Below are positions 33,001 through 42,000 of a stretch of DNA of 64,000 bases, piece by piece. Origin of the DNA: Candidatus Omnitrophota bacterium (GTDB lineage: Bacteria; Omnitrophota; Gorgyraeia; Gygaellales; Profunditerraquicolaceae). A program made the position numbers. The stretch covers positions 50,512 to 114,511 of the forward strand of contig JBHPGR010000001.1 in the NCBI GenBank assembly GCA_042570405.1, in the 5' to 3' direction. Position 1 is the first letter of the stretch, and every line of letters begins with the position of its first letter.

Positions 33001-36000
33001 TGCCTCTTTGGCTGAAACAAAAGCTCTGGATTCCGGACCTGATACGTCGGGAATTGGATTACAAGGGGAAGGTTTTGTTTTGCGGCCACCACGAGTCACA
33101 CGCAGCCAGCGCATTTTATCCTTCACCGTTTAAAGAGGCAGCCTTTCTGACCATGGACGGCGTAGGGGAGTGGGATACGGCAAGCTTCGGGACCGGCAAA
33201 GATAACGAGATAAAGATACTCTATAATCTAAGATTTCCCCATTCGCTTGGCCTTTTATACTCTACCTTTACTTATTATGCGGGCTTCCGGGTCAATTCCG
33301 GCGAATATAAACTGATGGGGCTGGCCCCCTACGGTGAGCCCAAATACGCAGACCTGATCATGGATAAGCTGATCGATTTAAAAGATGACGGTTCCCTTAA
33401 GATGGATATGCGCTATTTCGGTTTTGGGAACGGCCTGAGGATGACCAATAAGTGCTTTGAGAGATTATTCGGCGGCCCTGCGCGTAAGCCCGAGAGTAAG
33501 ATCGCGCAGAAGGATATGGATATTGCTGCCTCGATCCAGAAGGTGACCGAGGAAGTAATGCTGCGGATGAGCAGGCACGTACACAAGGTGACAGGTAAGG
33601 ATAAGCTTTGCCTTGCCGGGGGAGTCGCATTAAACTGTGTCGGCAACGGACGCATCCTGCGCGAAGGGCCCTTTAAGGATGTCTGGATCCAGCCGGCTAG
33701 CGGAGATGCAGGCGGTGCATTGGGTGCAGCGCTTCTGGTCTGGTACAGATATCTGGGCAATAATCGTACTACCGACGGCAAGAGCGACTCGCAGAAAGCT
33801 TCTTTGCTCGGTCCCTCTTACAGCGACGAACAGATCAGGGATTTTCTGATCAAAGAAGGCCTCACCTTTAAGGAGCTATCCGATACAGAAATACCCGAGG
33901 TGATCTCTGATTTGATCATTAAGGGCAATGTAGTCGGCTGGTTCCAGGGACGGTTAGAGTTCGGCCCCAGGGCATTAGGCTCCAGGAGTATTATCGGCGA
34001 TGCTCGCAGCCCCCAGATGCAGTTAAAGATGAATTTAAAGATAAAGTACCGGGAATCCTTTAGGCCATTTGCCCCCTCGGTTTTAGAGGAGGAGACCGGG
34101 AAGTGGTTTGACTTGGATAAAAAAAGCCCTTACATGCTTTTAGTGGCTCCGCTAAAAAAGGAGCGCTGGTTAAACGTAAAGTGCGAAGATGCAGGGGCGC
34201 ATGGGTTTGATAAGTTAAAGGTCCAGCGTTCGGTGATCCCAGCAGTTACGCATGTCGACTATTCGGCCCGCATCCAGAGCGTAAACAGGCAAGACAATCC
34301 GCTTTATTATGAGATGATCAGCGCATTCAATAAGAAGACAGGGTGTCCTGCGATCATCAATACTTCGTTTAATGTCAGGGGGGAGCCGCTGGTCTGCACC
34401 CCGCAGGATGCTTTTAAATGCTTTATGCGAACAGAGATGGATTATTTGATCATGGGGAGATTCCTCTTGGATAAAAAAGATCAGAAACAGGTCAAAAAGG
34501 ACGAACGGCCGCAGGAGGTTTTCGAGTTAGATTAGGAGTAAATAAGATAGCGTGCTTTATGATTAACGAGGGTAAGGACACTTTAGAAAGATTTTCATTG
34601 GTTTTATTCATCGGTTTTTCTCTTTTTGGTCTTATTTTGTTTTTAAAAGGAAAGACTGTTTTCTATATTCCGTGGCTGATGGCTATTGTTGTTATCTTGG
34701 CCGGCATCATTTGCCCGCTGCGTCTAAATGCTGTTTATAAGTTCTGGATGCTGTTCGCATCGAAGATCGGTTGGTTTAATACGAGAGTATTATTGATAAT
34801 CATATATTATATAGTCTTAACTCCCACAGGTCTTGTTATGCGTGTTTTTGGGATTGATTTATTGGATAGAAGGATAGAGAGGGATAAGGGATCTTTTTGG
34901 AGGAGGGCAGAGGAAAAGCCATTTAAGCCTTTAGATTACGAAAGGCAATCCTGACTGTTCTTTAATGATCTTTGATGAGGAGGTTCAATCTATGAGTAAG
35001 TTCTCGATTATAAGGGAATTTTGGGAATTCTTGCGAGTTCGCAAGAAATGGTGGCTGATGCCGATAGTGGCGGTACTTTTATTGCTGGGTTTATTGTTGG
35101 TTTTCACCCAGTCTTCAGCAGTAGCGCCATTTATTTACACATTATTTTAAGCGGGGAGATGATAAAAAAAATATTACTTATTATCTTATTATCGGCGATA
35201 GTAATAATCGCGCTTACCTATTATAACCATAGCGAATACAAAAGCGTCGCCTATAGCCTGGCCGTCCAGCCCAAGCTGCAGTCAGGGGATTTAAAGTATA
35301 AGATCTACTTCTTCGGCATATTTCCCGTTGGTGAGGCGGTATTCAGCGATAAAGGGATCAGGGAGTTTAATGGTACTCAAGTCCGCCATTTAACAGCCAG
35401 CGCCAGCAGTTCTACGATATTTTCCCGTTTTTTTAGCGTCCATGCCATCCTAGATTCATTTCTTGACTTGGAGGATGAAAACCCCTTATTGTTTAGGCAG
35501 AGGCTTTTGGTTACCGGAAAAGAGGATTCTTTAAAGGAGATAACCTATGACCAAAAGCAACATGTGATGACCCTTGAGGGGGTACGCAGGGAGATCCTCC
35601 CCGGGACACAAGACGCTCTTTCAGCGATGTTCAGGTTGCGCGGGATAGATTTTGATAAATCAAGCAAAATCGAGATGAACATCAATACCAATCAGAAGAA
35701 TTACCTGCTGGAGGGCGCTGCAGAAGCAAGGGTTCTGTCGCTGGTAGGACAGAGATGTGAAATAATCACAGCAAAAGCGAAGATCCGAAGAAGAGATAAG
35801 AATCCCTATCATAAATCAATGGTCACCTTCGTATTGTTTAAGGGTGAAGAGAACATTCCTATTTTGATCAAGGTTTTTGCCAGCGGAGTAGTGGTAACCG
35901 CAAAGCTCATAGATATAGAATGATAAGATAAATGTTTACTCAAGACATAATATCCATTCTTATACCTACTTATAATGAGGCAGATAATATGAAAGACACG

Positions 36001-39000: not shown

Positions 39001-42000
39001 TTTACCCTGATCCCTAATTATTTTAAACAACTGGAGATTGCCTATGTCGATGTAATGGTCAGTGCGTTGTTCTTCGCTGCTATAAATTTCCTTTTCGCGC
39101 TAAAGAAAGATTTTTCCCTAAGGAATTCTTTATTATTTGGCTTAAGCCTGGGATTGCTTATCGGTACCAAGACCCTGGCCCTGCCGTATGCGCTGCTTTT
39201 GATTCCGCTATTTCTGTATCTGGCCTTAACCAGGCTTAAGAAGTTTTATCTTCTGCTGATCGTTTTTACCTGCGTAGTTTTCTTCGGCGGTTTTAGCTAT
39301 ATCAGAAATCTACTTGATACGGGAAATCCTCTCTACCCGATAGATATCAGGTTGATGGGTTTTCGGATCTTAAAAGGAGTAGTCGCTCCTGCCTCATACG
39401 GCGCGCATTTTCGCCCGGAGGATCACAGTTTGGGCAAGTTGTTATTCCACGAGGGGTTAGGGATCCAGACTATTATATTCGTATTGCCTTCGATGTTTTT
39501 GGCGCTGCCGTTGGCGCTCTTCAGGAAGAGAAAGTCTGTTGACTTCTGTTTGGGATATTTGCTTATCCTGCCGTTATTTTTGTATCTGGTGTACAGGTTT
39601 GTGATCCCCCTTGCCAATGCAAGGTATCTCTATTCCTTGCTTGGGGTCGGCCTGATCTGTGCTTTTTATACATTTGAAACACTTAAGGTTCCTAAGCGGG
39701 TGATCAGAGTTTTGGTTGCCGCCTGTTTTCTGGCTTCGATCTCAGAGTTAGCCTCACACGGGGAGCTGGTGGCGTCACTGGTAACAAGTGCCCTGGTTGC
39801 TGTATTTTTATGGGTTTCGGTTAAGAAGCAGCTCTTAAGGACTAAAAGGAGTGCATTAATTATTTTTTCTGTGTTTTTGGTTGCGGCCGTTGCGATCTTG
39901 CCGCTCTTGGCGAGGGATTACATAAGAAACGAGTTCCCCAGGTATATCAGCTCCCAGGATTACTCAGGGTTCTGGCCGGATGCGACCAGCGCCTGGAACT
40001 GGCTGAATCAGAATACGCAGGGCGATAATATCGCCTATGCCGGCAGGCCGGTTCCTTTCCCGCTATATGGGACGAACTTCAAGAATAACGTATATTATGT
40101 TTCGGTGAACCGGACTGAACCGGCAAAGCTGCACTATTTTCCCGAGAGCTATTACCGGTGGGGCCATGATTTCTTAAGCCAGCATCTGAGCTTCCGCGAA
40201 GAAGGCAATTATCGCGGCGGGGCTGATTATCGCGTTTGGTTAGAGAATCTCACAGGGCGCGGCACTGATTATGTATTCATTTATTCTCTCCACCAGACCA
40301 AAGAGATCGATTTTCCGGTTGAGGAAGACTGGGCGAGGGAGGACACCGGGAACTTTCAGCGGGTCTTCACCAACGATACGGTGAGGATATACAAATTTAA
40401 GAGGAGTTAAAGCGATTATGCCCTTACTTTCTGTGGTAGTACCGGTTTATAACGAGGCAGGGACGATCCGGGAGATCCTGCGAAAGATCGCTGCGGTAGA
40501 TATCGATAAAGAGATAATCGTCGTCGATAATTGTTCGACGGACGGCACGCAAGGAATATTGCAGGATATTTTAAAGAGCAGGTCGATACCAGGGGTCAGG
40601 GCTATATATCATTCGTACAATAAAGGAAAAGGAGAGTCTGTCAAGGAGGGGATACATGAGTCCCGGGGGGATTTTGTGGTGATCCAGGATGCTGACCTTG
40701 AATATGACCCCAAGGAATATCTTAATCTGATAAAGCCGCTTTTAGATACTCAGGCGGATCTGACCCTGGGCGCGCGCTTTACCGGGGGCCATAGGGGGCT
40801 AGCCTTACACAGGTTAGGAAATAAATTCTTAACCGGACTCTTGAATTTTCTTTTTACTAGCCGCCTTAATGATTATGCCACCTGCTATAAGATGAGCCGC
40901 CGCAATACGCTGCTTGAGCTGGGGCTTAGATCAGGAGGCTTCGATATAGAGGCGGAAATCGTCTGTAAGGCGCTCAAAAAAGGATTACGCATCATCGAGG
41001 TGCCGGTATCCTATTATCCGCGCAGTTACGCTGAGGGTAAGAAGATCAGGTGGCTTGACGGGCTGCAGGCGATAATCAGTATTATAAAGTACCGCATCAC
41101 ATAGGATGGGAGACGAGACTTGAAAAGAAGATTGATCTCTATCATCGACTTTGTTATTTACTGGTCGATTATTATTGTTCCTTTCTCAATGGCTATATCG
41201 ATTGCGGCGATGAATGTGTTCGCCGGGCTCCTGCTCGTGGGCTTCCTGATCAAGAAGGCAATCAAGAAAGAGGCCATATTTGGCAGGACGGCCTTAAATC
41301 TGCCGTTATTGATCCTCTTTGCGATCACCGTATTATCGCTATTTAATACGATAGACTTTACTGATTCGATTAAAGGTGGGGTCTTCAAACTCCTGCGCTA
41401 TATTTTGCTATTCTTTATTATTATTCAGGAGTTAAGGGATGCTAATCATACAAAGAGGGTCTTTTTCTCGATGGCCCTTGGTGTCGTCTTTGCTTCATTT
41501 GACGGGATCTGGCAGGTTGTAACCGGCCATGATTTTGTCAGGGGTTACGAGCCGATCATCAACCTCAGCCTTGTGCGCGCCACAGCCTCATTTAAGGATG
41601 CAAATACATTCGGCATTTATCTCAGCGCTATCGCCCCGCTATTATTCGGGATGACGCTTTTTTACTTCAAGCGCAGGCTGCGGGTGTTGCTTGTAATCTT
41701 AAGCCTTTTGGTCTTGGCTGCGGCGTTATTGACTTATTCGCGGCCTACGCTCTTGGCCATATATGTCGTTTTATTTTACTTTGCGATAGCTAAAAAAAAT
41801 AAGGCCCTGATCATTTTTATGGTAATGATCACGCTACTTTTTCCTTTCCTGCTTCCCGGTTCGATCAAGAAGTGGGCGGGTGAAGTTGAATACAACCCGG
41901 TCAGGTTCATGTGTAATGATGACCGGATAGCAACCTACCGGAATTCGCTGAAGATGATAAAGACACATCCTTTGATCGGGGTCGGAGCTAATACTTATAT

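Follow-up and report, generated by a model that had tools for sequence, protein, structure and literature searches.

Two predicted lipid-linked-sugar glycosylation modules, one accessory and one conserved, in a lipopolysaccharide operon of an Omnitrophota bacterium

What do two small glycosyltransferase genes, and the two large membrane-protein genes that they bracket, do inside a glycan operon of an Omnitrophota bacterium? A preliminary description of a 64,000-nucleotide stretch of contig JBHPGR010000001.1 (the window) had proposed that they form two modules, each made of a polyprenyl-phosphate-sugar synthase and a membrane transferase. Calling open reading frames (ORFs) on the window recovered four on the plus strand at 35932..41104, with starts and ends exactly as in that description: the glycosyltransferase family 2 (GT2) gene GT2a (35932..36636, 234 aa), a DUF2079 gene (36642..38348, 568 aa), the gene that we call GT-C686 (38350..40410, 686 aa) and a second small GT2 gene, GT2b (40418..41104, 228 aa). 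Because the gaps between them are only 5, 1 and 7 bp, the four look like one operon. Two proteins of the window are 100% identical to the NCBI entries ACFL1K_00360 and ACFL1K_00405. NCBI gene calls for both membrane genes are about 100 codons shorter at the 5' end (463 against 568 aa and 595 against 686 aa); we kept the long ORFs because homologues span 98-100% of them and the N-terminal transmembrane (TM) helices are conserved. We think it likely that GT2a with DUF2079 (module A) and GT-C686 with GT2b (module B) are two extracytoplasmic glycosylation modules that use lipid-linked monosaccharide donors, placed inside a lipopolysaccharide (LPS) core/O-antigen-ligase operon.

We began with the small GT2 proteins. 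GT2a matches Pfam Glycos_transf_2 (6e-26) and, in the PDB, the Pyrococcus furiosus synthase PfDPMS (5mlz) at 3e-53, with ~45% identity in a match that takes in both interface helices besides the catalytic domain; its matches to GtrB (5ekp, 9e-17) and ArnC (about 1e-16 to 1e-15) are far weaker. In the alignment, 17 of the 19 DPMS signature residues examined are kept, including PfDPMS Y10, E12, D39, L69, D89-A-D91, H94, R117, R131, S135, F177, K178, R202 and K208, and only G68S and Q93S differ. The DAD motif of PfDPMS aligns to D95-A96-D97 of GT2a. Structural work on PfDPMS assigned D39 to guanine, the DAD motif with R202 and K208 to metal and diphosphate, D89, H94, R117 and K178 to mannose, and R117, R131 and S135 to the lipid phosphate (PMC5526996). 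The guanine- and mannose-binding residues (D39, L69, D89, H94, R117, K178) are all kept in GT2a and in its orthologues in two further loci (L003 and L004), the lipid-phosphate site is represented in GT2a by R123, R137 and S141, and the C-terminal helix aligns to interface helix 2 (IFH2). Neither GT2a nor GT2b contains a hydrophobic segment that reaches a Kyte-Doolittle score of >=1.6 or a processive QxxRW motif, so the preliminary view of both as soluble Dpm1/ArnC-like proteins stands. As PfDPMS stripped of its TM domain is still membrane-targeted and fully active (PMC5526996), a TM-less synthase is plausible. These results suggest that GT2a is a polyprenyl-phosphate mannose synthase of the Dpm1/DPMS class.

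GT2b belongs to the same broad group and departs further from DPMS. It matches Pfam Glycos_transf_2 (8e-31), NCBIfam AglJ (1e-33, below the AglJ cutoff), DPMS (6e-14) and ArnC (3e-10). In PfDPMS numbering it keeps the DAD motif, R117, F177, R202 and K208 and differs at L69K, Q93E, H94Y, R131N, S135T and K178D; since L69K, H94Y and K178D fall at guanine/mannose positions, we did not file it as a mannose synthase. A further small GT2 of related loci, GT2x, carries MAD instead of DAD, and the three lipid-phosphate positions read R/N/T in GT2b and R/K/S in GT2x. Both proteins are built throughout like DPMS, with a GT-A domain and then a C-terminal amphipathic helix, and both keep R117, F177 and R202. 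In NCBIfam and the PDB, the closest matches of both are without exception enzymes that make polyprenyl-phosphate sugars (AglJ, DPMS, ArnC, PpgS). We therefore regard GT2b as a probable polyprenyl-phosphate sugar synthase, with less confidence than for GT2a.

Are the two large proteins the enzymes that would use such donors? The 568-aa protein matches Pfam DUF2079 (PF09852) over residues 107-535 at 1.4e-67 (229 bits, cutoff 28.2); the 686-aa protein matches no Pfam model. We built AlphaFold models of both on family alignments (AF2; pLDDT 93.6 and pTM 0.92 for DUF2079, 84.8 and 0.89 for GT-C686) and searched them against the PDB with Foldseek. The DUF2079 model matched STT3 (1.4e-5), ALG9, DPY19, PglB and ArnT (TM-score 0.50/0.52), and the GT-C686 model matched STT3 (3.7e-5), AftD, ArnT (target-normalised TM-score 0.53), ALG9 and PglB, with PimE just above E 0.001. 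For both models, every match at E<=0.001 was a glycosyltransferase of fold C (GT-C) with a probability of 1.0. Transporters in the two lists did not exceed a probability of 0.25, with TM-scores of ~0.1 (best transporter <=0.16; best match other than a GT-C enzyme, a G-protein-coupled receptor, 0.23). Size, polytopic character and the lack of an enzymatic Pfam annotation might have suggested transporters or flippases; these matches leave that identity very improbable, and so do the invariant acidic, His and Tyr residues of the first periplasmic loop, a placement that recalls GT-C active sites. The fold-level comparison thus found what the preliminary description had expected.

The acidic first-loop motifs that had been noticed are indeed conserved. 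By the positive-inside rule the first acidic loops of the membrane proteins lie on the periplasmic side, and in DUF2079 and GT-C686 the helix leading into the first periplasmic loop is immediately followed by an invariant acidic residue. In DUF2079 this residue is D117, invariant in 46 sequences, as are H148, Q173, H220 and Y392. In GT-C686 it is D128, invariant in 36 sequences and part of a motif, G126-W127-D128-x-x-N131-Y132-H133, that is invariant in the family. Both proteins are polytopic as described, but with more helices than the 12-13 first counted: about 14 in DUF2079 and about 16 in GT-C686, including extra N-terminal ones.

The resemblance of GT-C686 to ArnT and PMT proteins holds for the fold and not for the sequence family. 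With >480 homologues, it gave no PDB-chain match by single sequence or profile; among 36 relatives, PMT_2 and GT-C_AftD reached E of about 0.02 in 3-4 (PMT_2 in 3 at E=0.016). We therefore rejected it as a sequence member of ArnT/PMT (PMT, PMT_2; GT83/GT39), the likeness being at fold level only. Among GTDB species representatives, our scan recovered 79 loci that encode GT-C686. Almost all of these records carry the label Omnitrophota; to a minority the depositors gave the labels Planctomycetales/Planctomycetia or Deltaproteobacteria, which we take to be misassignments. In five loci (L018, L032, L042, L059 and L075) a second, divergent paralogue with 33-36% identity lies upstream of the main copy. 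We predict from the models that GT-C686 is a family of GT-C-fold glycosyltransferases, lacking a Pfam model and conserved across Omnitrophota.

The preliminary description had pointed to a third such protein at 29155..31002 (plus strand), and a 615-aa membrane protein is encoded there. It has no direct Pfam match, the YfhO model (PF09586) included. Its family profile retrieves 12,842 relatives; among 35 distant full-length relatives (E<=1e-73), 13 match Pfam YfhO (best 1e-12) and two match PTPS_related. In hhalign its family aligns to the GT-C686 family with 85% probability and to DUF2079 with 73%, over the same TM region. Other direct profile-profile links failed (A1 against A2, 0.3% probability) or were weak (A3 against A2, 12%); it took the A4 profile, which is more diverse, to give usable links. 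Single-sequence and profile searches against PDB chains gave no sequence link for any of the three membrane proteins. A D46-E47 pair after TM1 is invariant in 35 sequences. We file this third GT-C candidate, on its sequence relatives, as a divergent relative within the YfhO superfamily and not as a YfhO family member. The gene lies in a low-GC island of its own (28140..31002; GC at third codon positions (GC3) 0.28-0.36), shared with a methyltransferase gene and flanked by gaps of 252 and 322 bp. DNA similarity to L006, the closest relative of the window, does not begin again until 30277, a position within the YfhO-like gene; this points to a mosaic or recombinant gene.

We then compared the locus, its genes labelled by BLAST, across Omnitrophota. 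The shared backbone runs carbamoyltransferase – SxtJ – DUF5989 – DUF3108 – [GT2a – DUF2079] – GT-C686 – GT2x – GT2b, then Wzy_C – GT9 – [ManC] – GT9 – DegT – GT2c – SDR – GmhB (SDR, short-chain dehydrogenase/reductase; brackets mark optional genes). One or two Dpm1-like GT2 genes follow GT-C686 directly on its 3' side in 58 of 66 loci (GT2x and GT2b in 33, GT2x only in 18, GT2b only in 7). The window, which lacks GT2x, belongs to the last group; GT2b orthologues, at 56-57% identity, lie 3' of GT-C686 in most loci, and a Wzy_C/WaaL-like gene follows the GT2 genes in most. On this synteny, module B is a phylum-conserved part of the Omnitrophota LPS-core operon.

Module A has a different history. 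No more than 14 loci contain DUF2079, in each of them directly upstream of GT-C686, and exactly GT2a and DUF2079 are missing from L006, whose GT-C686 is 78% identical to that of the window. In blastn, positions 30277-35909 and 38671-50406 align to L006 at 83-86% identity; between these blocks L006 has 337 bp and the window 2761 bp, a clean 2.4 kb indel. The intervening tract (35910..38670), which takes in both genes of the cassette and some 107 codons at the 5' end of GT-C686, has a GC content of 0.25-0.39 against 0.42-0.50 outside. GC3 is 0.51-0.58 in the genes around it but 0.30-0.31 in the cassette, where even the soluble GT2a has 0.30. The tract has the look of a replacement that came from a different Omnitrophota lineage through homologous recombination, and the clean indel and low GC3 indicate that module A is an accessory, laterally exchanged cassette. 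Hence the two modules are not equivalent as first drawn, one being accessory and the other conserved.

The pairing of synthase and transferase itself finds support. In 12 of the 14 loci, DUF2079 has a small GT2 beside it or fused to it. In one relative (P0277) a GT2 domain (residues 9-168) is fused to DUF2079 in a topology that places D117 outside the cytoplasm, and in another (P0334) an MprF-type, flippase-like LPG_synthase_TM domain is fused to it. Together these fusions tie DUF2079 to both other components of a three-component system. Given the modelled fold, we predict that the DUF2079 protein is a GT-C-fold glycosyltransferase, and from the adjacency and fusions with GT2 and flippase-like domains we infer a lipid-phosphate-sugar donor. 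DUF2079 is a widespread family, yet a search of 8 million full texts returned no useful paper on DUF2079 or PF09852, and to our knowledge no characterised CAZy family contains it. Outside Omnitrophota DUF2079 shows no regular adjacency to a Dpm1-like GT2. In one such locus (L086, 5001..7985) it adjoins GT9 and Wzx genes and a gene of the UbiA family, the family of polyprenyl-phosphate phosphoribosyltransferases, and in another (L087) two DUF2079 paralogues accompany a PMT_2 protein. Because of these two loci, DUF2079 enzymes may use several kinds of lipid-linked donor.

Might the small GT2 proteins of module B instead be ordinary cytoplasmic Leloir enzymes that extend an oligosaccharide linked to undecaprenyl diphosphate (Und-PP) or the core, with GT-C686 a ligase, a polymerase or an enzyme like an oligosaccharyltransferase (OST) that draws on an Und-PP-oligosaccharide? 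The neighbouring gene already provides a dedicated Wzy_C/WaaL-like ligase, and tight adjacency of GT-C and small GT2 genes, seen in those 58 of 66 loci, is a hallmark of three-component systems (PMC11127046). The retained DPMS architecture and the identity of the best matches argue in the same direction. The altered ligands of GT2b and the MAD motif of GT2x would fit this alternative, as would the presence of enzymes with diphosphate-linked donors (PglB and STT3, the top structural matches) among GT-C folds and the lack of a flippase for a monophosphate-linked donor in the window. We give this alternative a small chance and prefer monosaccharide donors carried on polyprenyl phosphate for both modules.

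What, then, is glycosylated? The preliminary description had suggested the adjacent pilins, and a wider version of that proposal would make the membrane proteins protein glycosyltransferases of PMT, PglB/STT3 or TfpW type that decorate type IV pilins or the DUF3108 protein, and not LPS. A complete-looking type IV pilus module does lie in the same window (52481..59936, minus strand; three N_methyl pilins, a PilX-like protein, PilM, PilN, PilO and a secretin), but it is >11 kb from the modules and on the opposite strand, and in other Omnitrophota the genes 3' of the locus encode a monogalactosyldiacylglycerol (MGDG) synthase and PriA, not pilus proteins. STT3 subunits head the Foldseek lists, which include Pmt4; by TM-score, however, STT3 does not surpass ArnT or ALG9, so these matches reflect the generic GT-C fold. 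A WWDYG-type OST motif is absent, there being no WWD in any of the three membrane proteins. The DUF3108 gene adjoins the GT-C genes, and DUF3108 is fused to YfhO-like GT-C proteins in two of the 35 distant relatives of the 29155 protein, while the conserved neighbours of the GT-C genes are LPS-core enzymes. We rejected pilin glycosylation by these modules on synteny, with no motif in its support, and consider protein targets in general improbable; LPS remains the preferred acceptor.

The proposed arrangement resembles several known systems. Those in which DPMS/Dpm1 serves GT-C enzymes that use dolichyl-phosphate mannose (PMT, ALG3/9/12 and DPY19; mycobacterial Ppm1 with PimE/Mpt) share with module A the synthase signature and a GT-C partner with a first-loop Asp, and human DPM1 and M. 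smegmatis Ppm1 have no TM domain, like GT2a. Here, by contrast, the partner is DUF2079, the genes sit in a bacterial LPS operon, and there is no anchoring partner like DPM2/3 or Lnt, one relative fusing the GT2 to the GT-C. ArnC-ArnT, which serves 4-amino-4-deoxy-L-arabinose, likewise joins a Dpm1/ArnC-like GT2 to a GT-C enzyme; here the genes lie among those for the LPS core, and ArnT, at TM-scores of 0.50-0.53, is one of the best structural matches to our models. RgtE-RgtA/B/C/D (galacturonic acid), LgmA-LgmB (glucosamine) and FlmF-FlmK (galactosamine) similarly pair an undecaprenyl-phosphate-sugar synthase with a GT-C enzyme that acts on LPS at the periplasmic face. Unlike ArnT, GT-C686 and DUF2079 fall outside the ArnT/PMT_2 sequence family; ArnC ends in two TM helices that the synthases here do not have, and ArnE/F-type flippase, deformylase and formyltransferase genes are absent here.

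Module A also recalls Gtr seroconversion (GtrB/GtrA/Gtr*) and PPPRS/MATE/GT136 systems in its compact synthase and GT-C gene, its variability between close relatives, its atypical GC and its lateral exchange. It differs in having neither a GtrA nor a MATE flippase and no phage context, lying inside a core operon and not at a prophage attachment site, and in a synthase much closer to DPMS than to GtrB. The three-component mechanism, which includes Gtr and polyprenyl-phosphate-ribose/GT136 systems, has been reviewed (PMC11127046); of its features, a synthase gene adjacent to a GT-C gene is found here and a dedicated flippase in the cassette is not. The likeness to teichoic-acid glycosylation by CsbB/GtcA/YfhO in Firmicutes, where YfhO uses C55-P-linked N-acetylglucosamine made by a GT2 (PMC7389260), lies in the YfhO-superfamily protein at 29155. 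That protein, however, falls below the Pfam YfhO model, the organism is a diderm without teichoic acids, and neither a CsbB-type synthase with TM helices nor GtcA is encoded adjacent to it.

Together these observations point to the following scheme. GT2a, attached to the cytoplasmic side of the inner membrane by its amphipathic interface helices, would load polyprenyl phosphate with mannose taken from GDP-mannose, of which the ManC-like enzyme at 43292 is the likely source. A carrier encoded outside the window would flip the mannosyl lipid, and the DUF2079 protein would transfer the mannose to a periplasmic acceptor by way of the invariant Asp117 of its first periplasmic loop. Module B would work likewise with another sugar, GT2b loading and GT-C686 transferring, most probably to lipid A-core or to a glycan ligated to it; the YfhO-like protein at 29155 would probably draw on one of the same lipid-linked donors. 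The folds, motifs, conserved residues, synteny, indel and fusions are what the data show directly; in this scheme we infer the lipid-linked donors, the mannose of module A and the flipping, and all acceptors from context. A strain-variable mannose decoration is the best reading of module A, and a conserved step in building the Omnitrophota LPS core that of module B.

Several observations weigh against the scheme. Among the scanned ORFs of the window there is no GtrA/GtcA, SMR (small multidrug resistance) or MprF-like flippase, and the only MATE/Wzx-type gene (5212..6684) lies 30 kb upstream of the modules. Pairing is not one-to-one: the window has two synthases for three GT-C proteins, one locus (L055) has a GT2a orthologue beside GT-C686 and no DUF2079, and GT-C686 has no adjacent GT2 in a few loci. 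GT2b, lacking two of the three DPMS lipid-phosphate ligands (R131N, S135T), could be an ordinary Leloir enzyme, and the GT2::DUF2079 fusion of P0277 comes from one contig in one metagenome. Finally, ManC is present in all eight assessable DUF2079-positive loci, but over 34 assessable loci (8/0/19/7) the co-occurrence is one-directional and not significant (Fisher p=0.12). In the first five loci ManC had occurred exactly where GT2a and DUF2079 did; we dropped this association as evidence and regard it as consistent with the scheme.

The mechanism itself is textbook, and here two uncharacterised membrane-enzyme families would carry it out; the gain is therefore one for annotation and enzymology and brings no new concept. 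The scheme offers a first functional hypothesis, concrete and testable, for DUF2079 and for a Pfam-less GT-C family of an uncultured phylum. Omnitrophota are ultra-small bacteria, possibly host-dependent, and the locus predicts sugars added to their LPS core in the periplasm, including a mannose decoration that varies between close relatives. Such a variable decoration fits the hypervariable polysaccharide cassettes reported in Omnitrophota (bioRxiv 10.64898/2026.05.20.726742). A bolder version would have GT-C686 found an Omnitrophota-specific GT-C family for a fixed, possibly essential LPS-core/lipid A step with up to two dedicated synthases, make DUF2079 a polyprenyl-phosphate-sugar glycosyltransferase, here a mannosyltransferase, and let the cassette be swapped by homologous recombination as a surface-antigen switch. 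We put this forward tentatively, and would sooner expect part of it to fail than all of it to hold.

The setting of the modules is that of an LPS core. Downstream on the plus strand follow a Wzy_C/WaaL-like protein of the O-antigen ligase family (41120..42364; Pfam Wzy_C 2.8e-21, with weak NCBIfam RfaL and PEP_O_lig matches), a GT9 heptosyltransferase-family enzyme (42339..43325; Pfam Glyco_transf_9 4e-27, NCBIfam heptosyltransferase II 1.6e-26, below cutoff), the ManC-like mannose-1-phosphate guanylyltransferase (43292..44368; NCBIfam GMP_PMI 5.8e-89, Pfam NTP_transferase and ManC beta-helix), a second GT9 enzyme (44361..45422; Pfam 1.4e-32, NCBIfam heptosyltransferase II 2.4e-35) and the heptose-1,7-bisphosphate phosphatase GmhB (49430..49972; NCBIfam PRK08942 5e-56, 189 bits, above the 178-bit cutoff). 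Nearly the whole of 9..49972 forms a single plus-strand glycan operon. Besides the two GT9 proteins, ManC, DegT and GmhB, it encodes a Wzx-type flippase, a WecA/PglC-type initiating transferase, two Wzy_C proteins, many GT1, GT2 and GT4 enzymes, B12-radical-SAM enzymes, methyltransferases, sugar-nucleotide enzymes and a carbamoyltransferase. We considered DegT, GT2c and SDR as counterparts of ArnB, ArnC and ArnA, and rejected this because GT2c does not resemble Dpm1 (25% identity over 100 aa, with only its N-terminal half matching GT2), the SDR resembles a 4,6-dehydratase and DegT is closest to PseC and LegC.

Directly upstream of the GT-C genes, a position syntenic in most loci, lies the gene for a DUF3108 protein with an N-terminal anchor (35159..35923, plus strand; Pfam DUF3108 7e-10). 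The ORF is listed as 35021..35923, its true start probably being M47 of the listed ORF. The DUF3108 family has been described as outer-membrane beta-barrels of the YmcC fold (PMC4364669), and the protein may be an accessory or acceptor-handling partner. Upstream of it is an SxtI/SxtJ/SxtK-like trio (32718..35150) made up of an O-carbamoyltransferase (32718..34535), SxtJ (34559..34954) and a 61-aa DUF5989 ORF (34965..35150; Pfam 4.5e-26). This trio adjoins DUF3108 and GT-C686 in most Omnitrophota loci, lies 3' of GT-C686 in three (L048, L055 and L080) and suggests a carbamoylated surface sugar.

Elsewhere in the operon, three B12-binding radical-SAM enzymes (2914..5205, 7607..9055 and 25489..26937), one of them fused to an S-adenosylmethionine (SAM) methyltransferase, together with several more methyltransferases, point to unusual C- or O-methylated sugars. 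At its 3' end an MGDG_synth-family ORF (49984..50706) encodes 240 aa against 363-371 aa in two relatives (L001 and L002), and the operon abuts a minus-strand RNase G gene where relatives have PriA; the locus end may thus have undergone truncation or rearrangement.

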